Positions 1 through 34,536 of a DNA stretch of 64,000 nucleotides are shown here, piece by piece. The notes under the pieces were generated by a model. That model saw nothing but the letters and a program-made list of their open reading frames with translations. It ran no database searches and was not told the origin of the DNA. Position 1 is the first letter of the stretch; the number at the start of each line of letters is the position of its first letter. Position numbers and translations under genes: made by a program. The DNA is from Candidatus Levyibacteriota bacterium (GTDB lineage Bacteria; Patescibacteriota; Microgenomatia; Levybacterales; GWA1-39-11): NCBI GenBank assembly GCA_036788695.1, contig DAIQMY010000001.1, positions 150,792 to 214,791 on the forward strand. Reading direction: 5' to 3'.

Positions 1-2417
1 CAGGCGGGTGGAGGACCAAACGCTCCGCCGCAGTGCGCAATTAGATTGATTTGAAATAATCCTATACTGTAATCGGGGCATACCTTATTAGTAGCAAATG
101 GATCACTTCCACTTTCAAGGTTACAGATGAGTGAGGCAGTAAGTGCGAGGTCGGGTTGGTTATTAAAATATGGAAGGAGATGTTCATATGAGCAGTATCC
201 TGTTCCTTCTTTAGGTCTGGTGCAGGCATTGGGTGACTGGGAGCCTCCGGGTCCAGCTGTGGATGCGCTTGCTTGTGCCCAGGCAGAGTTTGTTATATTT
301 ATATCAGTTTTTACGGGAAGGACAGTAAAGGTAAATGATGATGCTGCGGCGTTTCCTGAATCTGAAAGATTCCATGACAGTGTGCGGTCAGTTGTGTCAA
401 GCGTATAATTTCCCGAAGTTTTATTATCAACAAGTATAGTATTTTCAGGAATTTGATCAAAAATAATAATATCCTCTTTCCTGACGGTTGAATCTGATGT
501 GAGGGTGTAGGAGATAGTATAGGTAATTTCTCCTATCTCAGCTAATTCTGTTTGTGAAACTGTTTTTTGTAGTGTGAAGCTTGGAATGGGGTTTTGCGTT
601 GGCGGCTGTCCCACGCCTCCCCCTCCCCCTGTCCCACCACCAATTGTGGAACTGCCTGAATTATCAGAGGCAATCGTGATTACAGTCATCACGAACACAA
701 TGAAGAGTAGAATTACGCATGATACGCCAACGGTTACCCCTCCTGCGGGCGTTTTAAGAAAAGTCAGAGCCACTTGACTTACTCCTTTTTTTGCAAGCTG
801 TTGCTCTCCTTTCTTTGCTGCAGATGATGCTGCTTTTTGTGCAGCCTTTTCTCTTAGGCTTTTTCCTAAGCTTCTATTCATGTTTGAAATAGTGGAAAAA
901 GGACTTCTGTCTCGCACGCCACTTCTAAGAATTCGTGATTGCATATGAGGCTGAGAAGTAGATTGGCTAGTTTTTCCTTCCTGTTTTTGTCTTTGTTCTC
1001 GCTGACGCTTATAAAAATCGTAGCTTACGGCTCCAAGTGGGGAGATGACATATCTTCCGTATTTCCAGGTCTTACTTTGCCAAACCTTTGCGTCTCTTAT
1101 TTTTCTTAGCAGCTCAAACCTATCAAAGCCATTTGCAGCAGCTTTTGTTAATATTTTATTGATCTCTATTTTTTGGTATTCCTTTGCAGTTTTTGGTTTT
1201 CTTGCCACCTGTTGCGGTTTATTTGGGGAAGCCGTTTTTTTGGGTAGTATTTTTTTAATTCCCACAACAAAAGAAGGCGGAATTAAATGTTTTGTTTTGC
1301 TATATAAAATCCCAAGAGGCGAATATTTATACACGTTTTTGTACCACTTGAGTGTGGTTGAGGCAGTTTTTTTTGTTGCGGCTAGTGTATTTGATTTTTT
1401 TTGCACTTTTTTTGTATGCAGACTGGTATTATTTTCCTCACTTTTTTCTGTTTTTTCTTTTTTTGAGATATTTCTGTCTGAAATCCCTGCCGCAATTTTT
1501 CGACCCAATTCCCATTCTTTTAAGCGAGGACTTAGTTTGCCCATGAGAAAGCCTAATGGAGTATACTTATATATATCCACATACCCCTTTGCCCCTTTTT
1601 TTGCAGCAGCCTTGAGTGTTTGTCCTGCTTTGGATGGAGTTTTTTTTGGAGTTGTAGGCGTGGGCGGTAACGGTTGTTTTATATTTTCCGGAGACGTGAT
1701 GTTTTTATCTAAATCTTGTGTGGAGGAATCCGTTTGTGAAATTGGTGTGGAGGGTGAATTTTCCGCGGGAGAACTTTGTGCAGATGCGATTTCTTGTGGT
1801 GAATTTGTTTGAGACTGATCAGATTTTGCCTCAGACTGGGCAGTCGTGGTATTAGGTGTGTTCGGGAGCGCTGCCTTTGCAATGGTCTGAGAAGTCTTGC
1901 CTATCTGTTCTTCGTAGTTTCGGTTTTCGTTTACCCTGAATGAGCTATCCTTTTCAAAGGATATAGATGAACTTTTACCAATCCCTCTTTCATTGGTTCC
2001 AGAAGATTCAGGGGGTGTCTTTGCTGATATATTTTCTTCACTTGCGTTTTCTTTTTTGTCTTCCCCATTTTCATTGTGTACCATGTGAACATTGCTATGT
2101 TCTGAGGCGTGCTCTCTCCCATGACCATCTTTCTTGTGGTCTTCTGTTTTTTGTTGGCTCGTTTCCTCCTCCTTTTTGTCTTCGGTATTTTCAGGTTCTA
2201 ACACAAGATTTTTGGTAGCTCGGGCTTTTTCTCTTTCTAGAATATTTATTTTCTTATGTATTTCTGTTTTCTGAGTTTCTCCTTCCTTTAGCGAAAGGGT
2301 ACCGTTTGTAACTGAATCCTCTATGTTGCGCTCGTTAGTCACAAGCTGCTTGATTGAGGAGTCTATATTTTTTATCTGATCCTCGGAAGTAGGGGGTGTA
2401 TCAGAATTGTTTGCCAT
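1..2417 (-). CDS. Partial (C-terminus runs off window edge) large membrane-anchored VirB1-like cell-wall hydrolase: N-terminal charged low-complexity region with three Y-x-Y-x-P-L-G repeats, one TM helix, DUF11-like conserved-repeat beta domain, C-terminal lysozyme-like/lytic transglycosylase motif
   Basis: Manually translated minus strand from ATG (complement of 2415-2417) down to position 1 with no stop (>805 codons). It is not in the ORF track because no stop lies inside the window. TM segment VALTFLKTPAGGVTVGVSCVILLFIVFVMTVITIA. C-terminal NLESGSDPFATNKVCPDYSIGLFQIN resembles the Glu-Ser catalytic and G-L-x-Q-I-N motifs of SLT/lysozyme-like folds. Start is 19 bp downstream of the VirB4 ATPase gene on the same strand. 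Confidence 0.5.
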   Translation of the reverse strand, partial: MANNSDTPPTSEDQIKNIDSSIKQLVTNERNIEDSVTNGTLSLKEGETQKTEIHKKINILEREKARATKNLVLEPENTEDKKEEETSQQKTEDHKKDGHGREHASEHSNVHMVHNENGEDKKENASEENISAKTPPESSGTNERGIGKSSSISFEKDSSFRVNENRNYEEQIGKTSQTIAKAALPNTPNTTTAQSEAKSDQSQTNSPQEIASAQSSPAENSPSTPISQTDSSTQDLDKNITSPENIKQPLPPTPTTPKKTPSKAGQTLKAAAKKGAKGYVDIYKYTPLGFLMGKLSPRLKEWELGRKIAAGISDRNISKKEKTEKSEENNTSLHTKKVQKKSNTLAATKKTASTTLKWYKNVYKYSPLGILYSKTKHLIPPSFVVGIKKILPKKTASPNKPQQVARKPKTAKEYQKIEINKILTKAAANGFDRFELLRKIRDAKVWQSKTWKYGRYVISPLGAVSYDFYKRQREQRQKQEGKTSQSTSQPHMQSRILRSGVRDRSPFSTISNMNRSLGKSLREKAAQKAASSAAKKGEQQLAKKGVSQVALTFLKTPAGGVTVGVSCVILLFIVFVMTVITIASDNSGSSTIGGGTGGGGGVGQPPTQNPIPSFTLQKTVSQTELAEIGEITYTISYTLTSDSTVRKEDIIIFDQIPENTILVDNKTSGNYTLDTTDRTLSWNLSDSGNAAASSFTFTVLPVKTDINITNSAWAQASASTAGPGGSQSPNACTRPKEGTGYCSYEHLLPYFNNQPDLALTASLICNLESGSDPFATNKVCPDYSIGLFQINLIAHCGGAFGPPPA

Positions 2418-2435: not shown

Positions 2436-4424
2436 TCATTCATTATTCACCTTGTTGTTATCTGTAACAGGAGACGTAATAGGCTGTTGTGTAATTGGTT
2501 GAGATGCCTGTGGAGTAGGTTTCATAGCGGGTTGCGTTAGAGGCGCTTCTGTAGGAGGAGCTTCCTGTTTTGCGTCTGCTTCTTTTATGAATTGTTCTGC
2601 TGCCTGCGTATTTGTTCGTTCTGCCTCATCCAAAATGTCTTGAGGTTTAGAGGTGACCAGTTGATACTCAAAGTTTGATGCCAAAAATTGAGCTGTTAAG
2701 TGGTTTTGCCCTGCAAAAAAAAGTCCCTCTCCAACCTGCGCTGTTAGCAGAAATTGCTTTTCACCTTCTGATAAGTTAAGGGTTGAGGCGAGCGTTTCTA
2801 CCTCAGATGAGTTTTGTTTTAACAGGACCTGCATAGAAGAATTAGATAAGATTGCCTTGCCATAGTCGGAAGACAGGAAATCTTCTATGTCTTGGGTAAG
2901 CGTTGTAACTCCCAGGTAATATTTTCGTGCTCGCTTTGCAATTCCTTGCAAGAATGCAGCAGAGTCAGGATTTTTCATAAGATACCATGCCTCATCTACT
3001 ATTAATATACGTTTTTTCAATTTAGTTCTTACTCTGTTCCAAATAAAATCTAATATTACCTGCATGGCGACTGGCCTAAGAGATTCTTCAAGCTGTTTTA
3101 TTGAAAAAACGGTAAGTTGATTTTTAACATCGTAGTTAGTCTGTGAGTTTAATAGTCCTGAGAACCCTCCTTTGATGTACTTTTCTAGTCTAAACGCAAG
3201 GTCCTTGGCATCTGTTTCTTCCATATTCAAAAGTGTTTTATATAAATCCTCAAGAATGGGTGGTTCATTGCCAAAAGTTGATGGGTCAGGGATTATCCCT
3301 TTTTGCTTGTAACACAAAACGAGCGCGCGGTCTAAAATTGCCTCCTGTGTTGGAGAGAATTCACCAAGCATAATCTTGAGAAGTGAGTGGAGGGATAAAA
3401 ACTTTATTCCAAGCTGCGCTTCTGATCTGTCATCTGAAAGAAGGGCAAACGGATTAATTTTTACCTCAGAGTCTTTTGAAAAAGATATGTATTCTCCATC
3501 GAGCGCATGGCAGAGTGCTTTATATTCATCCTCAGGATCTATGATGAGAATTTCTGTGTCAAACATCATTTGACGCAACACCTCAAGCTTAACTAGAAAT
3601 GATTTTCCAGAACCAGATTTCCCAAAGACAACAGAATTTGCATTCTCAAATGAGAAGCGATCCACAATGATAAGTGAATTATTTAGCGTGTTTACTCCAT
3701 AAAAAATACCGTTTGGTTGAGATATTTCATAGGATGTGAAGGGAAACGTTGAGGCAACGGATGTAGTATCCATGTTTCGGGTAATAAATAATTTATCCTC
3801 CCCCAGGGGGAGTGTTGTTTTAAATCCGTCCTCCATTTGAAGAGTAGCGGGTTTTATAACCAGCAAGTTTGAGGCAAGTAGGGAAGTGAGTTCATTCGTT
3901 TTCTTATCAAGTTCATCAACTGTTTTTGCTGAAAGTGTAACATAGAGTCCAAATTGAAAGAATCGTTCAAGTCCCCGCGCTAACTCTTCACGCAGGGCGA
4001 TCGCGTCCTCAAGGGATGCTCGAACCTTAGGATCAGGTTCTATGCCGTTTTTCATATCTGATTCAATCGTTGCTTCCATTTCTCCAATTTTGCGTTTCAA
4101 ATTGGAAAGAATATCCCGACTTTCAACTGGGTATATAAACATAGATACGTTCATGGTTTCCTTGTAGTCTATAAGTATAGAAAGCCAATTTGGAGAAACT
4201 TCGCGCGGATAGTCAATTACAATAAACGTTCGGTAGAAAGCGTCTCCTACGCGAATATATTTAAAATCTACCTCAACGGATGAGGGAGCAAGAAGATCTA
4301 TCAGAGACACAGACCCACTTTTTAATTTCCCAACATCGTGTGTGATTTGAGGTTGTGGTGCAGATTGAGCTGTTTGTGCAGGTGCACTTTTTTCTGTTTG
4401 TTTTTTCTTTCCTAGTCCTAGCAT
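2436..4424 (-). CDS. virB4: VirB4/TrbE/CagE-family T4SS ATPase, C-terminal ATPase portion (662 aa)
   Basis: Walker A VVFGKSGSGKSF and Walker B RILIVDEAWYL (the DEAW motif is typical of VirB4). N-terminal stretch LIDLLAPSSVEVDFKYIRVGD...YPREVSPNWLSIL resembles the VirB4 middle region. Own RBS AAAGGAG 9 nt upstream of ATG. Confidence 0.8.
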   Translation of the reverse strand: MLGLGKKKQTEKSAPAQTAQSAPQPQITHDVGKLKSGSVSLIDLLAPSSVEVDFKYIRVGDAFYRTFIVIDYPREVSPNWLSILIDYKETMNVSMFIYPVESRDILSNLKRKIGEMEATIESDMKNGIEPDPKVRASLEDAIALREELARGLERFFQFGLYVTLSAKTVDELDKKTNELTSLLASNLLVIKPATLQMEDGFKTTLPLGEDKLFITRNMDTTSVASTFPFTSYEISQPNGIFYGVNTLNNSLIIVDRFSFENANSVVFGKSGSGKSFLVKLEVLRQMMFDTEILIIDPEDEYKALCHALDGEYISFSKDSEVKINPFALLSDDRSEAQLGIKFLSLHSLLKIMLGEFSPTQEAILDRALVLCYKQKGIIPDPSTFGNEPPILEDLYKTLLNMEETDAKDLAFRLEKYIKGGFSGLLNSQTNYDVKNQLTVFSIKQLEESLRPVAMQVILDFIWNRVRTKLKKRILIVDEAWYLMKNPDSAAFLQGIAKRARKYYLGVTTLTQDIEDFLSSDYGKAILSNSSMQVLLKQNSSEVETLASTLNLSEGEKQFLLTAQVGEGLFFAGQNHLTAQFLASNFEYQLVTSKPQDILDEAERTNTQAAEQFIKEADAKQEAPPTEAPLTQPAMKPTPQASQPITQQPITSPVTDNNKVNNE

Positions 4425-4463: not shown

Positions 4464-5078
4464 CTACACAATAATATTTTTAACGTCACTTGTTGAAAAG
4501 TCCACATTCATGCTTGTCTGGTTGAAAAGTTCAAAAAATACTCGTCCTAACTCTTCAGCCTTAATGACTCTACTGGAAAGCCCTATTCGTTCAATTTGCG
4601 TCATAACATTTGTTCTCTTGCTAGCTATTGCATCCGCGGTGCGTGCTTCGTGCGTCTTTTTACTGCCTCCTGATGTTGGCCCTAGCTCGAGCGCATTAAA
4701 TGGGATTACCACATATGTTTTTTTATCTAGCAGCCCATCTTCTTTTATAAGTTCCTGGATGAAATCCTTGTAGAGCCTTAAGTGCTCAGCCACTCGTGCG
4801 TTTTGGGTAACGGTAATTTTGTGATCAAGAGATGAGACATATGATGAGAGATCAATTCTTTTGGAAACTATCACAATCTGGATTGCAAAAGAGAGAGAAT
4901 TTAAAAGCGACATATACCCATATATACGCGCGTTTTGTTCGTCTTGGGAAAGAAGAAAAAAGTTAACAGATGAAACTTCCAGGATAGAGCATGCATTTTT
5001 TCCTTTTAAAAATACCGTGTCATCCCGAATATCTTCGATCTCAATAAAGGATTGTGTTGTCGATTTAATTTTAGCCAT
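4464..5078 (-). CDS. Stand-alone VirB4 N-terminal (CagE_TrbE_VirB-like) domain protein, 204 aa
   Basis: IEIEDIRDDTVFLKGKNACSILEVSSVNFFLLSQDEQNARIYGYMSLLNSL resembles the N-terminal domain of Gram-positive VirB4 homologs (PrgJ/TcpF/TraE type). Sits directly upstream of the ATPase part on the same strand, separated by a TAG stop and a 39-nt spacer containing an RBS. Confidence 0.5.
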   Translation of the reverse strand: MAKIKSTTQSFIEIEDIRDDTVFLKGKNACSILEVSSVNFFLLSQDEQNARIYGYMSLLNSLSFAIQIVIVSKRIDLSSYVSSLDHKITVTQNARVAEHLRLYKDFIQELIKEDGLLDKKTYVVIPFNALELGPTSGGSKKTHEARTADAIASKRTNVMTQIERIGLSSRVIKAEELGRVFFELFNQTSMNVDFSTSDVKNIIV

Positions 5079-5086: not shown

Positions 5087-6154
5087 TTATAAAGTATTTT
5101 GTGCAACTCCAAACAATTCACGTCTTAATTTTTCGCGTTGGTCTACAGATATTACTTGAATAGGTTGAGCCACTGATCCATCAAGCGTTATTCTGGTATC
5201 TTGAAACTCTTGTTTTTTTAACGTGTCCTCAAGGTGCAGGGTATATGTTCCGCTTGGAAGTGGAGTTGCGGCTCTAAAAAAACCATTTGCGTCAGTTCGG
5301 AAGGTTCGGAGTGGAACGTTTTGCGTATCAAGCACTTCCACAATGATGTGGGGGAGCGGTTTTCCTCTTGGGTCAAGTATTTTGCCTTGTAAAATATTGG
5401 CTATGTCTATGCCTCCTACAGATACTTGAGAGGGTGCCACTGGAGGGGTTATCGGTTGCGTTTCAGCTACTGCATGAGGCGTAGGAGGAACAATTTGTGA
5501 TTGAGAAGCAGAAGATTCTGTTTGGCTTGTACTTTCCTGAACAGGAGGGACTGAAGTTTCCGTATGGGGAGCAGATAATTCCCCAGACGTTCCTTCTTGC
5601 GTGTGTATGGCAGAGGCTTGCGTTGTGGGAGTTTTTTCATCGGCCTTAATAACTCTATTCGTAAATCCGCCCTGCTGTGTTGTGCCATCTTTGAAGAGGT
5701 TGCTCACGTTTTCTACTTGAGACTTCTCATCAGCATCAGGCTTAAAATAAGAACTTGCAAGCTGATTAAAAAGTTTTGCTTTTTGTACTGCTGCGCTGTC
5801 TCCTGAATTTGAGTCAGTAACGTTAGTGTGCGACGGAGGGGTAAATGTAAAGTATGGCATTTGTACTCCGTGTTTTTTGTAAATATATTGATTTTCCGCG
5901 GGAATTGCCTTAAAGAAGTTAAAAAGCATCTTATCCATAGGTCTTCCATCAATAGGCACAAACGCAAGACAAAGCCCTACGCCTCCTGAGAGAAGCATAA
6001 AGGGAAGCTTTAGTAAAAACGGAATGGGGAAAAAATAGAACAAGAGTGCAAAAACCCCGCCACCTAAAAGATATAAAAATTGTTTTACCGTAACAGATCC
6101 TATAAGCCTAAATTTAAACCCTGTAACGTCTTGGGGGATAGGATGATTTTCCAT
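5087..6154 (-). CDS. VirB3/PrgI-like small T4SS membrane protein fused to a long Ser/Thr/Pro/Gln-rich linker and a C-terminal transthyretin/carboxypeptidase-regulatory-like beta-sandwich domain
   Basis: N-terminal FKFRLIGSVTVKQFLYLLGGGVFALLFYFFPIPFLLKLPFMLLSGGVGLCLAF gives two TM helices in the VirB3/PrgI arrangement. Position immediately upstream of VirB4 in the conserved VirB3-VirB4 order. C-terminal GKILDPRGKPLPHIIVEVLD...GTYTLHLEDTL resembles a prealbumin-like fold. Confidence 0.4.
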   Translation of the reverse strand: MENHPIPQDVTGFKFRLIGSVTVKQFLYLLGGGVFALLFYFFPIPFLLKLPFMLLSGGVGLCLAFVPIDGRPMDKMLFNFFKAIPAENQYIYKKHGVQMPYFTFTPPSHTNVTDSNSGDSAAVQKAKLFNQLASSYFKPDADEKSQVENVSNLFKDGTTQQGGFTNRVIKADEKTPTTQASAIHTQEGTSGELSAPHTETSVPPVQESTSQTESSASQSQIVPPTPHAVAETQPITPPVAPSQVSVGGIDIANILQGKILDPRGKPLPHIIVEVLDTQNVPLRTFRTDANGFFRAATPLPSGTYTLHLEDTLKKQEFQDTRITLDGSVAQPIQVISVDQREKLRRELFGVAQNTL

Positions 6155-6402: not shown

Positions 6403-6741
6403 ATGGAATTTACACCGGAAAAGAAAAAAACAGTAGAGAAAATGATAGTTGATTCAATGATAGACGCTGTAGGGGCAGGAATTGTTCCTGAAGAAGAGCT
6501 TACTAGTATCTCTGATTTTGTTTTAGCTCGAATAGATGCCATAAACAATGAAGATGAATTGGTTATTTTTCTTGTTGAACTTTCTCAAAAATGGTCATTT
6601 TTCTTACCGATTGAACGCTTCATTGAAGGTGAGGCGAAAGAGGCGGAAGATAAAAAGTCAGTAGATAAAGCAGAAAATCTTATAAAGGATGGACAAATAG
6701 ATCAAGCGCTGCAGGTTTTAAAGGCAGCAGAGGGAGCATGA
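6403..6741 (+). CDS. Small acidic hypothetical protein (112 aa), translationally coupled to the next gene
   Basis: ORF with ATG start; its stop overlaps the start of the 645-aa ORF (6741/6743). Highly acidic composition. Confidence 0.45.
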   Translation: MEFTPEKKKTVEKMIVDSMIDAVGAGIVPEEELTSISDFVLARIDAINNEDELVIFLVELSQKWSFFLPIERFIEGEAKEAEDKKSVDKAENLIKDGQIDQALQVLKAAEGA

Positions 6742-6742: not shown

Positions 6743-8680
6743 ATGACAAAGAATATACAAACAGAGGCAGCAGCGCGTGCCATAACAAATAGAACAGAGC
6801 TAACTCCGGCTGAGCAGCAAGATAAACAAAAACAGCTCGCAGCAGGTGCTGCAAAAAGAAGTCTTGAAAAAAGACGTGAGGCCCTGGGTGGAGACGACCA
6901 TGGCTTTATGGAGGGAATGAGGAGTACAAAAAAAGAGACACTTGATGTGCCAACCGCAGATGATGCAGAGAAGGTAATTGAATCAGCCGCCAATACTCCT
7001 GAACAAAAAAGCGAAGCAAAAAAAATAGACGCAGTTTTGCGAGCAGTATTCTCAGGAGATAAAGCCTATCTTGAGGAACATCAGAATGCAACAAGTGACT
7101 CGTTAATTGCTCCTATTCGTGAAATGATGAGAAGGGACCCTGCCTTCAAAGAACTAGCAGATGCGATTGACAATAGTCCTGCTTCTTTCAATGAATGGGT
7201 TCAATTTGTGGCAGAGCAGTTAGATTCGGGGCGTAATCCAGGGGATAACAGGTTTGTGGACAATCTTCAGGCAAAGTATAAATCGTTTATGGAGAAGGAC
7301 AGAGAGGAATCGGGGGATAAGACGGCAATTCGAAGAAAGCTTGATATGCAAAAAGCAAAAGAAGACGCGCTAAACGATCAGTATCAGGCAAATATAAAAG
7401 AAGTTGAAGAAAATCGAGCACGAAAAGAATCTTTTTCTGATATGGATAACGGTGCGGGAAAAGAATTAAAGGAGATAACTGATACGGTTGCTAGTGAGGC
7501 TGAAGATCGGAAGCGGATAGAGGAGGAGATTGCGGAATTAAGAGTTGATAAAGCAAGAGTAGATGAAGATGCGCATAGCACTAATTTGTCAATAAGAAGA
7601 GAAGCCGAGCAAACACTGCGTCGATTGAGGACGAATATTTCTGATAAAGAAAAAGAGCTTGCCCCATTTAAAAAAAATATTGTTAAAAAAGAATCATTGA
7701 CTTCTGAAATGAAAGGATTAAATAATACGCACGAAAAACTTTTGCAAGATCAAGGAAGTCTTGCAACTCAAATTGAAACGATTCGTGAGGAGCGAACAAA
7801 GATAGAGAAACAATTAAATATCGGAGGCGGTAAGGATAAGGAGGACTTCGTAGGGGACCTGCGAGCTATTATGGGTGATGCTTTTCGGGACACTATGATT
7901 GCCAGATTTGATGCACAGCAGGCAGGCGTTAGTGAATCCTTTAAGGAGCTTATTGCGGAAGCACGCGATCCTCACGTTAAGGCAGCACTGGAGCAGCTGC
8001 AAGATAGTCATAATCGTTGGAAGGATTGGGATTCGGTCTGGAAAACAAAGCTGAAGGTTCCTTATGGTCGCAAGGAAGAGCCAAGTATGCAAAAGGATCT
8101 TATGAAGGAAGATGTAGACATTTTGCTTAAAGAGGGTCCTGAGAGTTTTATGAGAAGATTTCTTAGCCACAAGATGGATCCGGATACGAAAAACGCAGGT
8201 AATCCTCAGGGAATGATGTACTCTAAAGAAAAGATAGACGAACTCATTTCAGATAAAGACTTTATGGCTGCGGTACAGCCAAAGGCTGCCGGGTTATTAG
8301 TTCGCCAGGCAGTACAGACAAACGTATTGTCTGAGCGTCAAATGGCTGAGTTGAGAGATACAGAATGGGGAATGAGTGCGATTGAAAGTGCGCTGATGTT
8401 GGATAAGACTGCAGTTGAGAGCGGTAGAGCGCATCAGGCAATAGACTACATAAAGAAGCATCCAAAATTTGCGTGGTGGATGCTTCTTACGTTTTTATGG
8501 CCACCAGCAGGATTATTCGTTGCGGGAGTATACGCAGGTAAAGAGGTTGTGTCTGGAGTATTTCCGGGTAAAAATAAAGAGCATGCCGGAGGGCATGATA
8601 AAAAGCCTGTGAATGTTGAGCCTCCTCCATCACCTCACAATGAGCAGCAGTTTGCGCCTAGCCTCGCACCTGCGCATTAA
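6743..8680 (+). CDS. Large charged coiled-coil protein (645 aa) with a hydrophobic segment near the C-terminus (HPKFAWWMLLTFLWPPAGLFVAGVYAG); unknown function
   Basis: Long ORF with K/E/R/D/Q-rich, helical-looking sequence and a C-terminal TM helix. No recognisable catalytic motif. Confidence 0.55.
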   Translation: MTKNIQTEAAARAITNRTELTPAEQQDKQKQLAAGAAKRSLEKRREALGGDDHGFMEGMRSTKKETLDVPTADDAEKVIESAANTPEQKSEAKKIDAVLRAVFSGDKAYLEEHQNATSDSLIAPIREMMRRDPAFKELADAIDNSPASFNEWVQFVAEQLDSGRNPGDNRFVDNLQAKYKSFMEKDREESGDKTAIRRKLDMQKAKEDALNDQYQANIKEVEENRARKESFSDMDNGAGKELKEITDTVASEAEDRKRIEEEIAELRVDKARVDEDAHSTNLSIRREAEQTLRRLRTNISDKEKELAPFKKNIVKKESLTSEMKGLNNTHEKLLQDQGSLATQIETIREERTKIEKQLNIGGGKDKEDFVGDLRAIMGDAFRDTMIARFDAQQAGVSESFKELIAEARDPHVKAALEQLQDSHNRWKDWDSVWKTKLKVPYGRKEEPSMQKDLMKEDVDILLKEGPESFMRRFLSHKMDPDTKNAGNPQGMMYSKEKIDELISDKDFMAAVQPKAAGLLVRQAVQTNVLSERQMAELRDTEWGMSAIESALMLDKTAVESGRAHQAIDYIKKHPKFAWWMLLTFLWPPAGLFVAGVYAGKEVVSGVFPGKNKEHAGGHDKKPVNVEPPPSPHNEQQFAPSLAPAH

Positions 8681-8699: not shown

Positions 8700-9056
8700 T
8701 TAGAGTTTCTCTTCTGTTTTCGGAGGACTTGTGAGTTGGTTTAAGTCAACGCCCGTGAATTGAGACAAAAGGTTTATCATGACAAATGACATCATGATAA
8801 TAACTAGCCCAATAATTGCATAGGTAAGTCTTTTTCTGGCATTGTCCACTTTTTCTTTATCCCCTGAAGACGTTACATATTGGTAGCCTGAGTAAATGAT
8901 AAGAAATACGGCAACTACGCCGGATAGGACTAGTGCTGCATTAATTACATTTTGTAAGACAATCCATATGCAGGATATGGTAGCTACTCCTGTTGCATCT
9001 GGAATTCCCTCCAATGGTCTTACACATTCTCCCCAATCTTCTGTGAATAAATCCAT
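8700..9056 (-). CDS. T4SS pilin-like small membrane protein (VirB2/TrbC-type, T4SS_pilin family), paralog 3
   Basis: Two hydrophobic helices flanking the loop YVTSSGDKEKVDNARKRLTYAIIGLVII. The same architecture and motif recur in three neighbouring genes. Confidence 0.6.
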   Translation of the reverse strand: MDLFTEDWGECVRPLEGIPDATGVATISCIWIVLQNVINAALVLSGVVAVFLIIYSGYQYVTSSGDKEKVDNARKRLTYAIIGLVIIMMSFVMINLLSQFTGVDLNQLTSPPKTEEKL

Positions 9057-9121
9057 GTGCTATTAGCATAAAACAAATGTGAAAGATAATTCAAGAGGAA
9101 AGGTGTAAGTAGGCACCGTAC

Positions 9122-9577
9122 TTATTGGCTAGTATTCCGAAGTGTAGGTATTTCAAACCCAGAAGTAAGGTAATTACCGGTAAAGATGTAAAGGACTGCG
9201 TTTATGATAACGTAGGCTAATATAACTATGATAAGTCCTACAATTGCTGCAACTATTGTAGAGCGTGCAGTATCAATTTTTCCTTTATCTCCGCCTGAAA
9301 GAATCCATCGAACGCCTCCATACAAAAGGAAAATAAGGGATAAAACAATTCCGATAATTATAATAGCGTTTATAATAAAAGCAATCAGTTGATTTGGTGA
9401 CACGTCAATATTCCCGATTGATTTAGGTGACTTAATTATTATAGGTTCAATATTCTGAGCAAATGCAGGGGTCGCTAGAACGGACATAAGAAGTGAGCCA
9501 AATGATACTGAGGCGGTATTTATTATTTTTTGCAAACTCATATGATTAATTAGAACATGTTTTTTTTTGCATGTCAA
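9122..9577 (-). CDS. T4SS pilin-like small membrane protein, paralog 2, with an N-terminal Sec-type signal peptide
   Basis: Core IFLLYGGVRWILSGGDKGKIDTARSTIVAAIVGLIIVIL. The track start at 9577 is TTG. An in-frame ATG at 9541 gives MSLQKIINTASVSFGSLLMSVLATPAFA-QN, a classic signal peptide. Confidence 0.6.
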   Translation of the reverse strand: MTCKKKHVLINHMSLQKIINTASVSFGSLLMSVLATPAFAQNIEPIIIKSPKSIGNIDVSPNQLIAFIINAIIIIGIVLSLIFLLYGGVRWILSGGDKGKIDTARSTIVAAIVGLIIVILAYVIINAVLYIFTGNYLTSGFEIPTLRNTSQ

Positions 9578-9583
9578 TAAGCG

Positions 9584-9913
9584 TTATTGTTTTCCTATGT
9601 CTTGTAGGACTTGCGCGCCCAGGAGTAAGCCCACAATTCTTACAATGATAAAGGATAGGAGGATAATAATAAGCCCTACTATTGCGTACGTGATAGTGCG
9701 TCTTGCGCGGTCCAGTTTTGCCTTATCTCCTTGAGACGTAATCCATAAAACTCCCGCGTATAAAAGAAAAATAAGAGACGCAATAATGCCTATGGTAACG
9801 AACAGTCCTAATCCGAAGTTAATAATATCAGATGGGGCGTTTGCGCCTGATGGGATATTTTCAGGTGTTTGCACGTCTCCATATCCGGGTATTTTTAAAG
9901 ATAAGTATTTCAT
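9584..9913 (-). CDS. T4SS pilin-like small membrane protein, paralog 1
   Basis: Core IFLLYAGVLWITSQGDKAKLDRARRTITYAIVGLIIILL. Its ATG directly abuts the stop of the upstream pilin-like frame (TAATATG). Confidence 0.6.
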   Translation of the reverse strand: MKYLSLKIPGYGDVQTPENIPSGANAPSDIINFGLGLFVTIGIIASLIFLLYAGVLWITSQGDKAKLDRARRTITYAIVGLIIILLSFIIVRIVGLLLGAQVLQDIGKQ

Positions 9914-9914: not shown

Positions 9915-10401
9915 TTATTGAAAGCCTGGTATTCGCAAAATGTTTATACCTATAAACTCAAGTATCGCAATTGAGAGAATAATAAATATTAGTCCAGTGA
10001 TTGCTGCGGTTATTTGTTCCCGTGCTTGACCCACTTTTTCTTTGTTTCCCGCAGATGTCATGATGGTATATCCTGCGCGGATAAAGAAAAGGAGAGCTGC
10101 AACTCCTCCGATTGAGAGTACTATGGTAAAAATATCACGTACAAAAAATTGAGGCTCTGTGCTGATCTTTATTCCAAGTGCTGTTGGAATTTTTTTGCAA
10201 TACCCAGTTGTCTGATCTATATCTTGCTTATCGCAAAGCGCTCGGGGTTGAGACCATGGAATTGCAACTCCTAACTCTTTGCCATATGGATCTTTTATTG
10301 CTGTGCCTATTGTTCCTGTTTCTCCGCCGCTTGCTATTGTAAGCGGAATAAAGTAGTAGGTGAAATCGTTTTGTTCGCAGGTAAAAGTGTTTCCATTTTT
10401 T
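9915..10401 (-). CDS. Fourth T4SS pilin-like domain in an open frame of ~160 codons that lacks any ATG/GTG/TTG start; likely the C-terminal domain of a fusion with the upstream secreted protein via a -1 shift at an A8 tract, or else a pseudogene
   Basis: Manual translation of the minus strand gives ...KKIPTALGIKISTEPQFFVRDIFTIVLSIGGVAALLFFIRAGYTIMTSAGNKEKVGQAREQITAAITGLIFIILSIAILEFIGINILRIPGFQ*, which matches the pilin paralogs. The frame stays open upstream to a TAA at about 10423 and overlaps the last 20 codons of the 419-aa ORF in the -1 frame. The only in-frame Met lies inside the TM helix. Confidence 0.45.
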
Positions 10402-11557
10402 TTAAGTCCCGGCCGTCTTTAATTTTAAGAAGATATTTTCCTTCTGTAAGGGTTCCAAATACATATCCGTCGGCATCTTTTGATTCTGAACTGAGGAACA
10501 TATCTATCTCTCCTGTTCCATCTTCGGGTTTGGGGTTTGCGTTTACAACTAAGCATCTAGGCGCACTCTTGTAATCATTATCCAACCCTTCAACCTGTAG
10601 CCAATAATCATTATAAATATTTGAGTCCTTGCCTGATTTTATGTTTCTACCTTTTAAAATAATGGGTAGGGTGAATCCATTTTTTGTACTATTTGTATTT
10701 AGATTTGTGACAGTTTCCGCTTTTGGCTTTATAATCTCAGGGTAAAAGTGAGTTACGTAAAATACCGCATCCGCCTTTACATCATCAGGGCTTACGCTTT
10801 TACTATCTTTCCCCTGCGATAAATATACATGGTATGTTTTTCCTGCGTGAAACCAATCTCCAGAAGTGAACTGATTCGTTTCAGTACAGTCTTCTTTAAG
10901 TGTTTTTTCTCCATCCCCACACAACTTGCTTAGTATAACTATTCCGTCTCTTGGTTGCGCTTCTTGCCAGTCATCCTCCCCACAATCTTGAGGTTTACTT
11001 TTGAGGCAGTAGAAATATTTTGCGTTTTTAGTAGGATTGGAAAGATTAATAAATCGAACAGAAATATAAGGAACGCTTTCATCTATAAATGCTTGATTCG
11101 TTTTTGGATTTTTTGGAAGTCCTCTTGTTGCGCCCAGTCCCTTACAGATATAGTAAGATTCAGTAGTAATGCAGTCACTCAGGTTTGGATTATTAACTTC
11201 ATCTAAAAATCTGTCTTCGTCAGTTTTTCCCTCCTCGTTTGCACATGTACTTTCTGTAAAAAGAGTTGAATCATCAATTGTAATGGTAGATGTTCCTAAA
11301 GGTTTTTGTATTTTGCGATTTTGTGCCGGAATATCAAAGTACCTGCATAAATTTGTGCAGATATTGTCATCAGGGGGGACAAATGAGATGTCCTTTAAGG
11401 GCACTTCTTTCCCTTTAATAGTTTTAGTTACCAATTTTTGGGAAGAACATTCGCTTAGGTCTTGTCCGCTGAATTGAACACCCGTGGCGTATGTTGTAGC
11501 TGTTGTGAAAATTAAAAATAAGAAGAAGACAGGCAATAGCAGGAAAGTTTTCTTCAT
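10334..11557 (-). CDS. Secreted Cys-rich protein (about 407 aa from the internal ATG; the track ORF starts at a TTG at 11593); candidate pilus-associated adhesin
   Basis: Signal peptide MKKTFLLLPVFFLFLIFTTATTYATG. Numerous Cys residues suggest disulfide-rich extracellular domains. The 3' end contains the A8 tract (plus-strand T run 10396-10403) where a -1 shift joins the downstream pilin frame. Confidence 0.55.
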   Translation of the reverse strand: MKKTFLLLPVFFLFLIFTTATTYATGVQFSGQDLSECSSQKLVTKTIKGKEVPLKDISFVPPDDNICTNLCRYFDIPAQNRKIQKPLGTSTITIDDSTLFTESTCANEEGKTDEDRFLDEVNNPNLSDCITTESYYICKGLGATRGLPKNPKTNQAFIDESVPYISVRFINLSNPTKNAKYFYCLKSKPQDCGEDDWQEAQPRDGIVILSKLCGDGEKTLKEDCTETNQFTSGDWFHAGKTYHVYLSQGKDSKSVSPDDVKADAVFYVTHFYPEIIKPKAETVTNLNTNSTKNGFTLPIILKGRNIKSGKDSNIYNDYWLQVEGLDNDYKSAPRCLVVNANPKPEDGTGEIDMFLSSESKDADGYVFGTLTEGKYLLKIKDGRDLKKMETLLPANKTISPTTLFRLQ

Positions 11558-11598
11558 ATAACTATCATAGGAGGTTTTTTGCTCTAAAGTCAAGAAAT

Positions 11599-12930
11599 TT
11601 ATGGAAGAAAGCGGTATCCTCTACCTTTTATAGTAGTAAGATGTGTCGGGTTGTTTGGGTCTTCTTCAATCTTTCGTCTGACTCTGTATATGATTTGATC
11701 AAGTGCTTGGTCGGTCACGCCCTCACGTGTCTTTTCATCTGACCATACAGACTCTATTATTTCCTCTTTTGTACACACCTTATCAGTGTTTTGAATTAAA
11801 AACCGTAACAGTTTAAATTCTGATGGTGAGAGTATATCCGTTAGCGACTCGTTCCCTGCTTTTATTTCTTGAGTATCTGTGTCAAATGTTATTTTCTCAG
11901 TTGCGGGGTGTGGAAAGTGGGACAGATTTTTTTCAAATAAAGGAATTTGAATTTCTCCGTTCTGAACAAGATAAGAGTATTGCAGAAAAGAATCTTTTGG
12001 AGTATCTTTTGGGGATTTGAGAAGTATTTTTTGCTCAATTGGTATAAGCGAATTCCATATTTCAGTCAAAGCTCCTTGAATTGCAGCTTTTGAAAGTAAA
12101 AAAGTTGCCATATCCGCGTGCTTTCCCTCTTGAGCAAGCACAGTTTCAAGGGCTATTCTGGATAATTTTCCATGTCCCCCTGTAAGTTTTATAATTTCTT
12201 TGTGCGTTGCAGGACTAACCGTTCTTCCGCTCGTTTTCTCAAGATAGGCAAAGCGGAAAGCATTCGCCTCAGCGTCACAAAGGGGAAGGAAAACGTGGTT
12301 TCCTACGACAAATTCATAGAAATCCCCGTATATGCTAGGTTCCAATAACTCCTCAAGCGGTCGTTCTAGGGAGAAAACGCAAGAAAATCTATATTTTGCC
12401 CTATTTCGTAAAACATGCAAATCTGTAAAAAAAGAAGAACTTATCTGTGGGAAATAGGTGTCAAATCTATCAAAGAGAAGAACTACGGTTAGCTCCCGCT
12501 CTATAGACAAATAGTCTATGGCACGTTTTAACGCCTGAAAAAGTATTAATTCATCCTGAAAAGAAATCGCCTCCTTGAGAATGTTGTTTACCGCCTCTTG
12601 TTCTTCCTCCATCTTCCGTTCTGAAAAAGAGTAGGAAAGGGAGATAAGAATAAATTTTATTAGTTCGTAAAAATTTCTTCCCTTAATCTCTGATAGATCC
12701 ATATAGACAAAGTGGTACCATTTATAGTTTTCTCCTAGGTGAAGAACGCGCAAGGGATTATTGTAGGCTAAAAGCCGCAAGACGTTTGAACGACCAACTC
12801 CAGGAAGGCCGACAACTTGCGCGGAGTTTCCCTTTTGAACGTATGAGAGAATTTTATCTATCTCATGTGTCCTGGAGGATGGAGGATAAAGAGAGTCAAA
12901 ATGCATGGGTTCTGAGGCTAAAGTAGTCAT
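11599..12930 (-). CDS. Putative transcriptional regulator: N-terminal P-loop NTPase-like domain (AAA/STAND-like) plus C-terminal OmpR/PhoB-type winged-helix DNA-binding domain
   Basis: P-loop-like VVGLPGVGRSNVL. C-terminus TKEEIIESVWSDEKTREGVTDQALDQIIYRVRRKIEEDPNNPTHLTTIKGRGYRF matches the trans_reg_C winged-helix signature (W...V.V.I.RLR.K...........I.TV.G.GYR). Confidence 0.55.
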   Translation of the reverse strand: MTTLASEPMHFDSLYPPSSRTHEIDKILSYVQKGNSAQVVGLPGVGRSNVLRLLAYNNPLRVLHLGENYKWYHFVYMDLSEIKGRNFYELIKFILISLSYSFSERKMEEEQEAVNNILKEAISFQDELILFQALKRAIDYLSIERELTVVLLFDRFDTYFPQISSSFFTDLHVLRNRAKYRFSCVFSLERPLEELLEPSIYGDFYEFVVGNHVFLPLCDAEANAFRFAYLEKTSGRTVSPATHKEIIKLTGGHGKLSRIALETVLAQEGKHADMATFLLSKAAIQGALTEIWNSLIPIEQKILLKSPKDTPKDSFLQYSYLVQNGEIQIPLFEKNLSHFPHPATEKITFDTDTQEIKAGNESLTDILSPSEFKLLRFLIQNTDKVCTKEEIIESVWSDEKTREGVTDQALDQIIYRVRRKIEEDPNNPTHLTTIKGRGYRFLP

Positions 12931-13003: not shown

Positions 13004-16000
13004 ATGAATGAAAGATTTTTGCCACAAGAATTGACAGCAGGAAGGGTATCTTCTACACTTAATGTAAGGAGTACTATGCCAGAGCCACAAAAAGAAGAAC
13101 CTATTGTTCTCAAAAAAAATGAAGTGCATCCTCCCAGGATAAGTAATTCTCCACGACCAGAATCAATACAAGAGCTTATGCAAAGTCAGGCAGAACGTGA
13201 GGCGGCACGAGCCATAATGGAAGAGGCTCGGAAGCAAGGAAAAACATTATCTGAGGATGAAAAAAAAATGATTCTTGCTTCAGGAATTAAATTTCCTATT
13301 TTTGGAGGCGCTGATGTGCCAGAAAATGATTCTTATAATCCAGACAGTGAAGACAGTGAAGAAAACCAGGGCGGAGAGGTTATAAGAAGGGGTTTTGAGC
13401 TGCGACCCCCACGTGATCACGCCCATAACCCGCAACTCCTTGATGAGATAGAAAAATTTAATAGGGTAGCTGAGTTGGGTGTTGATTTTGATGATCTCAA
13501 ACGCGAGGCAGATAAAATCATGAATCTTCAGTCGTTAGACCCAAACAATCCGATTACATCTGAGCAAAGACAAGACCTTATAAGACAGCTTTCTAAGAAA
13601 GGACAAGAGATTGCGGAAGCAAGAATGAATAATCCAGACAGGTTTGGTTTTTACCTTGAAACCCAAGACTTACGAGAATTGGATGATGATCCTATAGCAT
13701 GGCTAGATTCTCAATTTGGTCAAATATACAATTTGTCTAGATTGGGGAATGAGTTAGATTCTCCCGCTTTGCAGCGTGCGCAGACAGAAGTACAAGAAGC
13801 ATCTGCATATCTCCTGAAGAGATTTGGAAAATTCAGAAAAGAGGGGATTAAAAATGCCAAAGACGTTGATCAGGCAAATCAGGATAGTAAGTTGTTGTTG
13901 GAATTTAATGAAACATTTATGATCAGGTTAAACCTCATTTTTGCCAGAACAGCAATTGATCAAAGAAATATGGAGCAAATACAGGGCGCAGTTGGAAGAC
14001 TAAGAACTTTAGGTTTTGCCGGAGCCCAAGCTTTTGACAATGGAGCAGTTGGTGCTATGTATAACCGTATGGAGGCGATGCTTGGGAATTTGCGGCTTGC
14101 AGAAGGTGGGCGTGAGCATCACCTTAATCCTATGTCTTTAAACAAGTTGCAGGAAAGAACTATAGACGAGCAGATAAAACTTGCAAAAGAAGGCGTAGGT
14201 ATATTTGCCGATAGATATAAGGATATCCTGTTGGATCCAAAGAAACGGTTGAATGCTGATGACGTATTAAAACGCGAGATAATCAGGTCTGTTAGAACAG
14301 CATACGATATTTTAGTTGTATCCCAGAGAGTAGCAATAGTTGCCGCTCGCGGTAATTATAGAGGAGACAGGCAGCAGTACTTCTCTGATAATGGTGGTGC
14401 TTTTGCTGTATTTAACTTGGAACAAATGACTATTAATAAGTGGGACCTATTAAATCATGAGGAGCAGGAGTTCTTTGATTTTCTCAAGCTTGACATGGCT
14501 ATTAATAATAAAAAAGGAGTAGATGTATCCGGGTTGACGCGTGAACAATTATTAGACTTAGGAGGAAGGCTATTTAGGGATCTGTATGTAGTTCCTGATT
14601 TTTATTCATCATCCTGGAGAATGAATGGAATGAGGGATCAGTTGGGGAGGGTAATTCAGTATAGGGCTGAAAACGACAAAATGATTGAGAAGTTGATAGA
14701 AGATCCTAATTTTACTCCCGCTGATGAAAGACTAGTGGAGTTGCAACGGCAAATGAGGGCAGACAAAGAAAGTTATATGAAGGCATGGGATGAGCGTAAT
14801 CCTTCAAATAGAATATTGCCGGGAGATCGCGAAATTGCGCAAAGACAATTTTCCCGCCAAATGTTTGAGAAAGTCTTAACCCGTGACCAAAGAGAGCTAT
14901 GCCTGAGAGTTCTGACACCGGACGACATGATGGATGTTATAAATGTTGCAATAAAAAAAGCCGGTACGCAGTTAGGAAAAGAGGTTGGAGACTTTGCTCT
15001 GTTTGTACAGTTGAAGCAAAGTTTGGGACATTTAGGACATCGCTCTGGATCACCGGAAGATATACGTAAAGAGACACGTAACTACAGGACTGAAGTTTGG
15101 GAAAAGATTCAAAAATTTAAAACAGAGGATGTTATACAGTTGATAAGAGGTCGGGCACGACCAGATATATACACGGAAGACTACAATAACTTGCGTGAGT
15201 TATATACGCTTTTTGAGAAAAATGATCCAGAATTGGGAGTACTAACTAATGAGCAGAAAGAATTGCAAAAAACGGGGGGCATAGAAGCATTTCATACATA
15301 TGATAGGTTTATTGAGAAATACGGTTCAGTAATTCAGGCAGTACGTCAAGACGCAATGCGAAACAGCTTAACTGGTCCAGAGCAGGTAGATATGACCAAT
15401 CTAAACCCTCGACAGATTGAAATGGTTAACAGAATGCTAGGGAATGGAGCAGCGGTTACTCTCCAAAATATCTATAAGGACATGAACAAATTTATAAATC
15501 GTCACGGTATTGTCAAGGAACTTGTGACAAGCCATAAGTACATAGATCTTTACAATAGAGTAATAAACGTAGAGGATGTAATGCTTGACACATTAGAATC
15601 AATACCTGAAAACGCGAGCTTCCAGAAGTTATCAGATTATTTCACTGCAGAGTCAGGAGCAGATGCCTTAAAACGAAACTTTAATGATATAGGAAATGCG
15701 GTGAATGCAGGGAACGCATTTATTAAATTTATCACAACTGAAGACAAGGAAGGAAGATTTAAAGAATCCAAAGTTATGAAAGGCGCTGTGGAGGCGTATA
15801 ATGGTCGCGGAAACGGTGCTGAAGTTATGCGATTTACCTATGGAACAGAATTATTATATTCTCTGCAGTACTATTGGGTTAATATGTTGCGTTTAGGTGC
15901 ACTTCCGTTAAGAAAGCCAACCTCAGTGAAGCAGGAGCATTATGGAATTGGAGCAAAATCCTTAACCAGAGAAGATGTCCGTGGAGATTTGGATCATCAC

Positions 16001-17932: not shown

Positions 17933-18029
17933 AGGGCAGGTAGTTTTAGTATGGCTCAAAAAGCAACAAAAAGTCAAGGAATATATAAGTAGGGGTTTTT
18001 ATTGACAACTATATATAAAACAGGGTATC

Positions 18030-26058: not shown

Positions 26059-26459
26059 GGGGATGCAATGCATCGACAGGAATTGCTCTTTTACAACTGC
26101 AAGCCGGCGATGGTTCACAGCCGTAAAATAGGACCAAAAATACACGGTAAGTTTAATCTTACCCAGGGTCTCAAACGCGTTTTCGCGGATAGAGACATGT
26201 TTAAAGTAGGGCAACCTGCTTTTAACTTCGCTTAATAGCGCCTTGCTTACGCCCTTTCTTTTCTTAACGGATAAGCGTAGGTAAAAACCTTGTTAAGATA
26301 GGATTCAAGAAGTGATTAAACTTGAATTAGAAAAATTAGATCTTGGAACTGTTTCCCCTGTCAATTGGGTCAGAAATAGTTCGACAACAAAAAATTGACT
26401 ACGCTTGTAGATGTTTTAAAAAGTAGTTTTTGGACGGGAGGTCAAACTCCCCATCTCCA
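26059..26459 (+). ncRNA. ssrA: tmRNA (ssrA), about 401 nt, one-piece
   Basis: 5' GGGGATGCAATGCATCGACAGG (tRNA-like 5' end). 3' GGACGGGAGGTCAAACTCCCCATCTCCA (T-arm plus acceptor strand complementary to the 5' GGGGATG). Candidate tag ORF GCG GAT ... GCT TAA TAG (26185-26238) encodes ADRDMFKVGQPAFNFA followed by a double stop. Confidence 0.75.
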
Positions 26460-26466
26460 CACTTTA

Positions 26467-31018: not shown

Positions 31019-31078
31019 GGGAGTAATAATAATAACAATTTTTACCTATGCTTACAACCCGGGGAAGGAGGTTGTGGG

Positions 31079-31150
31079 TGGGCGCGGCAGGATTTGAACC
31101 TGCGACCAATTGTGTATAAGACAACCGCTCTACCACTGAGCTACACGCCC
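31079..31150 (-). tRNA. tRNA-Ile with anticodon UAU (decodes AUA), 72 nt
   Basis: Reverse complement GGGCGTG-TA-GCTC-AGTGGTA-GAGC-G-GTTGT-CTTATAC-ACAAT-TGGTC-GCAGG-TTCAAAT-CCTGC-CGCGCCC-A. Clean cloverleaf with a 7-bp acceptor stem, U33, anticodon TAT, A37 and discriminator A. Confidence 0.7.
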
Positions 31151-31205
31151 AAAAACGAAACTGTGGTAAATTATAGCACGAGAAAGGTAAATATTCGATT
31201 CGTAA

Positions 31206-34172: not shown

Positions 34173-34253
34173 GCATCCATGATATCACCTATGCATTCTT
34201 TTGGCAATTTCACAAACCTAACAGAAGAGTAACAAGATGAAACGAGTAATATG

Positions 34254-34530: not shown

Positions 34531-34536
34531 CCCTTC

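Follow-up and report, generated by a model that had tools for sequence, protein, structure and literature searches.

A predicted membrane-anchored, lysozyme-like protein with a repeat-bearing cytoplasmic region encoded next to VirB4 in Candidatus Levybacteria

The VirB1-like hydrolases that serve type IV secretion systems (T4SS) in Gram-positive bacteria are membrane-anchored. PrgK of Enterococcus faecalis pCF10, which belongs to the DELTA class, consists of an N-terminal domain inside the cell, a transmembrane (TM) segment at residues 254-274 and three ectodomains (PMC11323569; PMC12857230 section 10). Its "SLT" domain is actually a muramidase (PMC11323569), and its intracellular domain is poorly modelled by AlphaFold and has no known role (PMC11323569; PMC12857230 section 10). 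The gene order in pCF10 is PrgI, CD1110-family VirB4, PrgK. The T4SS of Patescibacteria are described as chromosomal, located near dnaA, equipped with pilin arrays and devoid of a relaxase; surveys rarely find VirB1 homologues beside virB4 and leave the wall-breaching enzyme open (PMC12102498). Here, we analyze the gene that occupies the position directly after VirB4 in a 64,000-nucleotide stretch of DNA (hereafter, the window) from a Candidatus Levyibacteriota bacterium (GCA_036788695.1, contig DAIQMY010000001.1, positions 150,792 to 214,791). It lies at 1-2417 on the minus strand and runs off the window edge, so that residues 1-805 of its 863-residue product are encoded in the window.

The architecture and position of this protein have a clear precedent in PrgK-type VirB1 analogues. 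Both genes directly follow PrgI and CD1110-family VirB4 genes, and both products combine a long, Lys-rich intracellular N-terminus that is poorly predicted by AlphaFold2 (AF2) with a single TM segment and one or more extracellular wall-degrading domains. The lysozyme-like domain of PrgK is a muramidase (PMC11323569), as the Glu/Asp pair of the Levybacteria protein predicts for its own domain. The two proteins differ in their parts: while the ectodomains of PrgK are LytM, MUR and CHAP, the Levybacteria protein carries DUF11 and one SLT_3-type domain, the peptidase being the product of a separate gene downstream. At 557 aa, the cytoplasmic domain of the Levybacteria protein is twice the length of that of PrgK (253 aa), which has neither the YKY[TS]PLG repeats nor the conserved helical module found there.

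A further point of comparison is the locus of Candidatus Southlakia epibionticum ML1 (Saccharibacteria), which likewise contains dnaA and dnaN, genes for small exported Ig-like proteins and for hydrolases, a large protein encoded immediately after VirB4, a TrsD-like protein and PrgI. In that genome, VirB4 is SEML1_0008; the next gene downstream, SEML1_0007, encodes 1113 aa with a wall-peptidase domain at the extreme C-terminus (residues 951-1105), and SEML1_0006 combines lysozyme-like and cysteine-protease domains (PMC10633639 supplementary tables). Epibiotic growth requires both SEML1_0007 and SEML1_0006 (PMC10633639 supplementary tables; PMC12102498). The likeness is one of locus layout and published domains only, and SEML1_0007 differs from the Levybacteria protein in having a C-terminal Hedgehog/DD-peptidase fold rather than a lysozyme-like one. 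EtgA, from the type III secretion system of enteropathogenic Escherichia coli, and the VirB1-type specialised lytic enzymes are unlike it in being soluble periplasmic proteins of diderms, with no anchor, stalk or cytoplasmic domain.

Judged from its sequence, the protein is likely to serve as the peptidoglycan glycosidase dedicated to a chromosomal T4SS adjacent to oriC in an ultra-small Candidatus Levybacteria bacterium (Patescibacteria/Candidate Phyla Radiation), the positional and topological counterpart of PrgK, with a cytoplasmic scaffold that may dock to the machine. Three features of the membrane-anchored VirB1-like hydrolases of the PrgK/TraG kind were found together: a position in a T4SS cluster, a predicted single TM segment with an external catalytic domain, and a lysozyme-like fold with a conserved Glu. 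A fourth, sequence homology to PrgK, TraG or VirB1 through an SLT (PF01464) or CHAP domain, was not detected. What is new is the conserved, repeat-bearing cytoplasmic scaffold and the combination of a DUF11 and SLT_3 ectodomain in the PrgK slot, together with a C-type-lysozyme-like catalytic pair and a cassette-like exchange of catalytic heads. In Levybacteria, the slot right after VirB4 is thus filled by a divergent, predicted membrane-anchored lysozyme-like protein that standard profiles miss. This fills a stated gap in the parts list of Patescibacterial T4SS and does not overturn current expectations.

The gene and its lysozyme-like ectodomain

A first-pass annotation of the window had proposed a minus-strand gene of more than 805 codons, opening at the ATG at 2417 and located directly downstream of VirB4. 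The translated frame bears this out, with 805 codons and zero stops between 2417 and 1. The ATG at 2417 is the true start, since the MANN N-terminus is kept in all four of the first-found homologs, and it lies 18 nt past the stop codon of a CD1110-family VirB4 gene (2436-4424). The gene is missing from the list of open reading frames (ORFs) supplied with the sequence because that list omits ORFs that run off the sequence end. The plus-strand ORFs listed in its place (127-408, 1045-1812 and 1967-2218) are F/L-rich antisense shadows, as had been suspected. The description of the gene as unannotated needs amending: all 805 residues encoded in the window match protein P0153 (GenBank HMS22272.1, 863 aa) at 100% identity, and the gene is therefore already called in public data without characterisation. 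What stands is that the record reads only "hypothetical protein" and that the supplied list had omitted the gene. The same record provides the full C-terminus that the first-pass annotation had sought to recover. Only 58 residues lie outside the window, and both candidate catalytic residues are inside it. A relative 59% identical to the protein carries the label "FlxA-like family protein", which we take to mirror the N-terminal coiled coil only.

The position of the gene is conserved. The order PrgI-like, TraC-like, VirB4, target gene is shared by loci L001 to L006 and L008 to L010, and a longer block, continuing with a small ORF, a second hydrolase, dnaN and dnaA, was found in every related locus examined, including those of relatives at ∼25-30% identity. 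A scan of 185,579 species genomes with alignment A1 returned only 3 loci; one species-representative genome is labelled Candidatus Levyibacteriota.

When the whole protein was scanned against Pfam, NCBIfam, PHROGs and PDB sequences, nothing was returned, and signals were obtained from isolated domains only. The C-terminal domain (residues 726-863, of which 726-805 are encoded at 1-242, minus strand) is a putatively catalytic, SLT_3-type domain that resembles C-type lysozymes. In isolation it matches Pfam SLT_3 (PF18896) at 20.7-20.8 bits (E-value 5e-4); automatic annotation leaves the domain blank because this score is under the curated cutoff. Pfam SLT (PF01464) gave a non-significant match (E 0.2, 11.7 bits), Pfam Lys (PF00062) gave none, and no CHAP domain was present in the Pfam scan. 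Alignment A2 comprises 63 sequences of this domain (∼135 aa), and the window's domain is 39-93% identical to the other 62. At E ≤ 0.01, SLT_3 is matched by 62 of the 63 (best 3.5e-13) and Lys by 7; matches to SLT were found for 15. Membership of the domain in SLT_3 is accordingly proposed by transitive homology. A literature search on PF18896/SLT_3 found nothing relevant.

The alignment shows an invariant E-S pair, a G-L-x-Q-x-N motif, a near-invariant D-Y pair and conserved cysteines. Two residues emerge as candidates for catalysis: E768 (codon at 114-116, minus strand), a candidate general acid in the ES motif that corresponds to the invariant E43-S44 of alignment A2, and D782 (72-74, minus strand), a candidate second catalytic residue in the DY.IGLFQIN motif that is at least 90% conserved. 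The lysozyme/SLT-like motif named in the first-pass annotation (ESGSDPF...YSIGLFQIN) is indeed present, and it lies within a lysozyme-like fold. An AF2 model built on alignment A2 reached a mean predicted local distance difference test score (pLDDT) of 95.2 and a predicted template modelling score of 0.89. The top 50 Foldseek matches of this model are all C-type lysozymes or lactalbumins, which shows a lysozyme-like fold and answers the check for it that had been proposed.

Searching the A2 profile against the PDB also gave C-type lysozymes as the best matches, led by shrimp lysozyme 6ukc (E 4.5e-6) and including human lysozyme (∼1e-3); the E-values across these lysozymes (4.5e-6 to 5e-3) point to no more than distant relatedness. 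In the residue-level profile alignment, E768 aligns to E35 of both hen egg-white lysozyme and human lysozyme, and D782 to D52 of the hen enzyme. C765, C796, C806 and C860 align to hen C30, C64, C76 and C115, while the remaining four cysteines do not align. The animal C-type (GH22) lysozymes are the best profile and fold matches, align with the domain at the catalytic Glu and Asp and at several disulfide cysteines, and have, like this domain, eight cysteines in ∼130 residues. Unlike them, the domain is bacterial and forms the C-terminal module of a membrane protein; identity is only 17-24%, and the cysteine pattern is partly shared. Because the Glu/Asp pair is present, the domain is probably a muramidase, acting by hydrolysis, and not a lytic transglycosylase. 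The pair, together with the cysteine pattern, suggests a bacterial relative of the animal C-type lysozymes, which bears on the question of muramidase versus lytic transglycosylase. A DsbA gene adjoins the locus in three related genomes, and an adjacent DsbA fits a disulfide-rich secreted lysozyme domain.

The domain is preceded by a DUF11 (PF01345) beta-sandwich (residues 607-725; 243-599, minus strand), a probable stalk or spacer. When isolated, these residues score 29.9 bits against DUF11 (E 7.4e-7), above the gathering score of 24.6, in agreement with the DUF11-like beta domain described earlier. Whole-protein scans did not report it at E ≤ 0.01 for the window product or at E ≤ 10 for protein P0001. 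The beta strands of this region were modelled by AF2 at pLDDT ∼60-76. A Gly/Ser-rich, presumably flexible linker (residues 584-606; 600-668, minus strand), read directly from the sequence, joins DUF11 to the membrane segment, and its G-rich stretch is kept in relatives.

A single TM helix is predicted at residues 558-583 (669-746, minus strand), the only segment whose Kyte-Doolittle mean (up to 2.96) exceeds 1.4. It is flanked by 10 K+R and 2 D+E in the preceding 50 residues and by 1 K+R and 4 D+E in the following 50. No signal peptide was found at the N-terminus, the first 60 residues being hydrophilic (maximum 15-residue Kyte-Doolittle mean -0.36). The N-terminal 557 residues contain no cysteine and the C-terminal domain contains 8; outside the TM helix, all cysteines are C-terminal to it. 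The single hydrophobic segment, the positive-inside charge bias, the absence of a signal peptide and the cysteine distribution together predict a type II single-pass membrane protein with an N-in/C-out signal anchor, a cytoplasmic N-terminus and an external C-terminus. The hydrophobic segment and the charge bias thus agree with the earlier proposal of one TM helix with the repeats on its cytoplasmic side.

The cytoplasmic scaffold and its protein family

The 557 cytoplasmic residues begin with a helical hairpin of coiled-coil type (residues 11-72; 2202-2387, minus strand), whose helices 11-37 and 43-72 were modelled at pLDDT ∼77-88. The MAxN start and the hairpin are kept in most scaffold-bearing relatives. 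Full-length AF2 prediction from a 4-sequence alignment gave a mean pLDDT of 40.9 and is usable for this hairpin and, weakly, for DUF11. The hairpin is followed by a low-complexity linker rich in S, T, P, E and K (residues 73-270; 1608-2201, minus strand), which is probably disordered (pLDDT 24-36, composition). The linker is the fastest-evolving section of the protein, with 44% identity to P0002 and 19% to P0003, compared with 84-93% in the ectodomain.

Downstream of the linker, in a basic region spanning residues 271-557, the three repeats announced in the first-pass annotation were all located, the quoted sequences lying at residues 279-294, 359-374 and 452-467. Repeat 1 (residues 273-301; 1515-1601, minus strand; KKGAKGYVDIYKYTPLGFLMGKLSPRLKE) is the best-kept copy. 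It is matched by the repeat hidden Markov model (HMM), has the consensus GK.Y[KM]YT.P.GF..GK...R.KER..AKK, and its G293 is invariant across 19 divergent relatives. Repeat 2 (residues 354-380; 1278-1358, minus strand; TTLKWYKNVYKYSPLGILYSKTKHLIP) was identified by motif count and the repeat HMM. Repeat 3 (residues 447-474, ...VISPLGAVSY..., within 996-1205, minus strand), also matched by the HMM, forms the end of a helical module (residues 405-474; 996-1205, minus strand; KPKTAKEYQ...GFDRFELLRKIRDAKVWQSKTWKYGRY). This module is a conserved block in alignment A3, with the consensus KTAKEYQ..WN...L.KA...GYDRF.LL.KIRD.K.W.S..WKYGKY..SP.GA.

Three or more Y.{0,1}[ST]PLG motifs were obtained in 0 of 20000 residue shuffles of the protein, and the repeats persist, in 1-5 copies apiece, in relatives down to ∼25-29% identity. 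The positions of the motifs and the 70-residue helical module are kept down to ∼22-25% identity. The repeat HMM matched scaffold-bearing proteins only. The triple repeat is therefore non-random and conserved. The cytoplasmic region closes with a basic juxtamembrane segment (residues 503-557; 747-911, minus strand; N..LG...R......AAKKG.QQLAKK....FLKTP), in which N514, G518 and P557 are invariant.

A direct comparison of the protein with PrgK by BLAST was not significant (E 0.16). With hhalign, the scaffold profile and the PrgK N-terminus aligned across the juxtamembrane and TM stretch (probability 73%, E 3e-5), with LK[TN]P..W among the matched positions. The same profile also matches synaptobrevin in the PDB, and VAMP2 obtained a better score (84%, E 7e-6) when put through hhalign in the same way. 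Because this unrelated control outscored PrgK, the similarity was ascribed to a generic arrangement, a basic helix that leads into a TM helix, and no homology of the tail to PrgK is claimed.

To define the family, an exhaustive profile search was performed, which returned 448 representatives at E ≤ 1e-3, and 152 of these proteins were examined. The C-terminal domain of ∼135 aa is common to 87 of the 152, while the full-length cytoplasmic scaffold was found in ∼21 (local HMM, alignment A4). These ∼21 clusters share the MAxN start and hairpin, repeat 1, extra repeat copies, the helical module, an LN..LGR..G motif, the basic juxtamembrane helix with its terminal invariant Pro, the TM helix, the G-rich linker and DUF11. 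Many other relatives have the TM segment, DUF11 and SLT_3 with a short or unrelated long N-terminus. Word-index homology searches with the C-terminal domain alone or with alignment A4 gave no matches, K-rich words having apparently swamped the candidate collection. This defines a scaffold family, ∼21 representative clusters in size, that has a repeated motif and carries interchangeable catalytic heads; its short conserved motifs offer a concrete handle on the unexplained intracellular domains of PrgK-type hydrolases.

Scaffold-bearing proteins carry at least four kinds of C-terminal module: SLT_3-like, CESGY..GLFQMN..YWxCW, WQxLAGxH and KTES. The second hydrolase gene of the locus is similarly variable. 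Its slot holds a CHAP domain in L001 (13066-13710), an unclassified Cys/His-rich domain in L008, a contig of the window's own genome (13066-13662), a Peptidase_M23 domain in L009 (6938-7579) and M23 plus YkuD in L010 (10334-11455). Between the L008 and L001 proteins, similarity is confined to the first 40 residues (signal peptide and QFRTDSNT.TTKVGNP), so the catalytic part has been swapped in the manner of a cassette. The target protein itself diverges much faster than its neighbor, with 59-69% identity where VirB4 is 92-95% identical and ∼30% where VirB4 is 80% identical. This divergence is concentrated in the disordered linker (19-44% identity); the ectodomain keeps 83-93% identity.

Possible roles in the secretion system

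If the protein is the dedicated glycosidase of this T4SS, the Gly-rich linker and DUF11 stalk would hold the disulfide-rich lysozyme-like domain outside the membrane, where it would cut the glycan strands of the wall locally and so allow a pilus or channel to pass. On the inner side, the lineage-specific, conserved scaffold consists of the coiled-coil hairpin, the disordered linker, a strongly basic region (net charge +46) with three YKY[TS]PLG repeats, the helical module and the juxtamembrane helix, and its short conserved islands could act like multivalent docking motifs. By tethering the enzyme to VirB4, the TraC-like protein or PrgI, the scaffold may confine wall cutting to the assembly site. 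The C-terminal catalytic module is exchangeable on this common base. The suggestion of the first-pass annotation that the cytoplasmic region couples wall remodelling to the VirB4 ATPase is plausible: docking is inferred from the invariant adjacency to VirB4 and from the short conserved islands within a fast-evolving, low-complexity basic region.

Several observations weigh against this explanation. The SLT_3 score of the protein's own domain is under the gathering cutoff of 27, and the alternative C-terminal modules give weak, sub-threshold SLT signals (types B and D) or none (type C). Beyond the hairpin, the cytoplasmic region was modelled only at pLDDT ∼25-45 (AF2, 4-sequence alignment), and its only similarity to the cytoplasmic side of PrgK, that from hhalign, is non-specific. 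The topology, finally, rests on hydropathy and charge bias.

A different function for the cytoplasmic region is conceivable, although we regard it as unlikely. The region could bind anionic lipids or nucleic acid, with the PLG motifs as interfacial membrane-binding hairpins, or it could be a coiled-coil element for self-association or retention. Residues 271-575 carry a net charge of +46 with 22.6% K+R, the repeat motifs are rich in Tyr, Phe and Leu with Lys flanks, AF2 confidence is low, and the intracellular domain of PrgK is likewise Lys-rich and poorly predicted, all of which would suit a lipid or nucleic-acid binder; the confidently modelled, coiled-coil-like hairpin would suit self-association. 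However, the retention of the motif positions and of the 70-residue module down to ∼22-25% identity is more specific than a composition-driven binder needs.

Patescibacteria are epibionts, and the enzyme could be aimed at the wall of the host bacterium. A membrane-tethered, stalked lysozyme at the contact zone could then make an opening in the host wall, either for the T4SS pilus or to take up nutrients, and module swaps would track host wall chemistry. The various C-terminal modules on a common scaffold, the exchange of domains in the neighboring hydrolase gene among close relatives and the rapid evolution of the protein relative to VirB4 would all be expected under this explanation, and epibiotic growth of S. 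epibionticum requires both the T4SS and the hydrolases next to it (PMC10633639). The geometry argues otherwise: the TM segment anchors the protein in the producer membrane, its reach is limited to ∼25 linker residues and one DUF11 domain of ∼120 aa, and the producer's own wall must be crossed first. Moreover, the divergence lies mostly in the cytoplasmic linker rather than in the well-conserved ectodomain, and an epibiotic lifestyle of the Levybacteria lineage is itself an assumption. On balance, a host-directed enzyme appears quite improbable.

A housekeeping autolysin or cell-division hydrolase, or a lysin of a prophage or integrative and conjugative element (ICE), could also have come to lie beside the T4SS by chance. 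The lysozyme-like fold is common to many autolysins and phage lysins, and the locus is chromosomal and adjoins dnaA and dnaN. Yet the place right after VirB4 is invariant down to ∼25-30% identity and is the same as in the prgJ-prgK order of pCF10, and no integrase or phage genes were seen around the target, while the window contains transfer-messenger RNA (tmRNA) and tRNA genes. Chance proximity is therefore very improbable. A phage or ICE origin was rejected given the absence of PHROG matches, the weak and generic SLT matches in BFVD, the tmRNA and tRNA genes and the adjacency to dnaA and dnaN.

The dedicated-glycosidase explanation can be extended further, although in this form it is speculative and its probability low. 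The scaffold might be an inside-out control device, in which 3-5 YKY[TS]PLG islands and the helical module bind the VirB4/TraC-like ATPase multivalently and thereby place, and perhaps switch on, the muramidase only at an energised, assembling T4SS. The exchangeable cassettes of the target and of the neighboring hydrolase would adapt the machine to wall chemistry, possibly that of the host, and the bitopic protein might fill a VirB8-like scaffolding role in lineages where no VirB8 homologue is detectable.

The surrounding T4SS locus

The layout of the locus matches published descriptions of Patescibacterial T4SS. The VirB4-like ATPase upstream of the target (2436-4424, minus strand; 662 aa) belongs to the CD1110 family (NCBIfam NF045971, 426 bits vs a cutoff of 325) and matches Pfam P-loop_TraG. 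It is preceded by a separate TraC-like/TrsD-like protein of 204 aa (4464-5078, minus strand), which matches NCBIfam VirB4_plasma over positions 100-232 and TrsD, and for which PF26593 (TraC-like) was found in related loci. VirB4 thus appears to be split, the 204-aa protein covering the N-terminal part of VirB4 models and the 662-aa ATPase the rest. Further upstream is a PrgI/VirB3-like protein with a CarboxypepD_reg domain (5087-6154, minus strand; Pfam PrgI 33 bits, CarboxypepD_reg 36.8 bits), and three VirB2-like T4SS pilin genes (PF18895) form an array at 8700-9913 (minus strand).

Between the pilin array and PrgI, on the strand opposite to the T4SS genes, lie two genes that are present in all close relatives. 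One encodes a conserved 645-aa protein with weak SMC/coiled-coil similarity (6743-8680, plus strand); the other, adjoining it, encodes a 112-aa protein (6403-6741, plus strand) whose L008 homologue has a sub-threshold DUF2150 match.

Contig L008 is 99.992% identical to the window over 12.4 kb and extends beyond its left edge. At L008 12595-17649, ORFs of 155, 198 and 157 aa come first, next dnaN and dnaA on the opposite strand, and finally a DsbA/thioredoxin gene. The T4SS locus thus abuts the replication origin, with the same layout in L009 and L010. A difference between the two sequences was found at ∼10402, within 9915-11593 (minus strand; L008 860-2503), where a poly-A tract is one base shorter in the window (AAGAAAAAA to AAAAAAAA). 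The deletion frameshifts a gene that encodes 547 aa in L008, with a T4SS_pilin domain at C-terminal residues 473-535, and leaves in the window a 419-aa ORF (10334-11593) without the pilin domain. An error in the assembly, variation between strains or phase variation of the homopolymer could each account for the deletion.

The pilin/T4SS block is headed by a gene for a 443-aa protein (11599-12930, minus strand) that combines an AAA_16-like N-terminal part with a C-terminal Trans_reg_C domain, a winged helix of the OmpR/PhoB type. This protein, conserved in L001 and L008, is a candidate regulator of the locus. Further along, the 1063-aa ORF at 13004-16195 (plus strand) has just one hydrophobic segment, which is C-terminal, and no family match. 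A 589-aa ORF at 16208-17977 (minus strand), with ∼7 TM-like segments and no Pfam match, could be the missing VirB6-like polytopic subunit. Elsewhere in the window, ARAGORN identified a tmRNA gene (26059-26462) with four clustered tRNA genes nearby; its calls include a tRNA-Ser with anticodon ACT and a tRNA-Ile with anticodon TAT (34253-35543 and 31075-31151), both of which are unusual anticodons.

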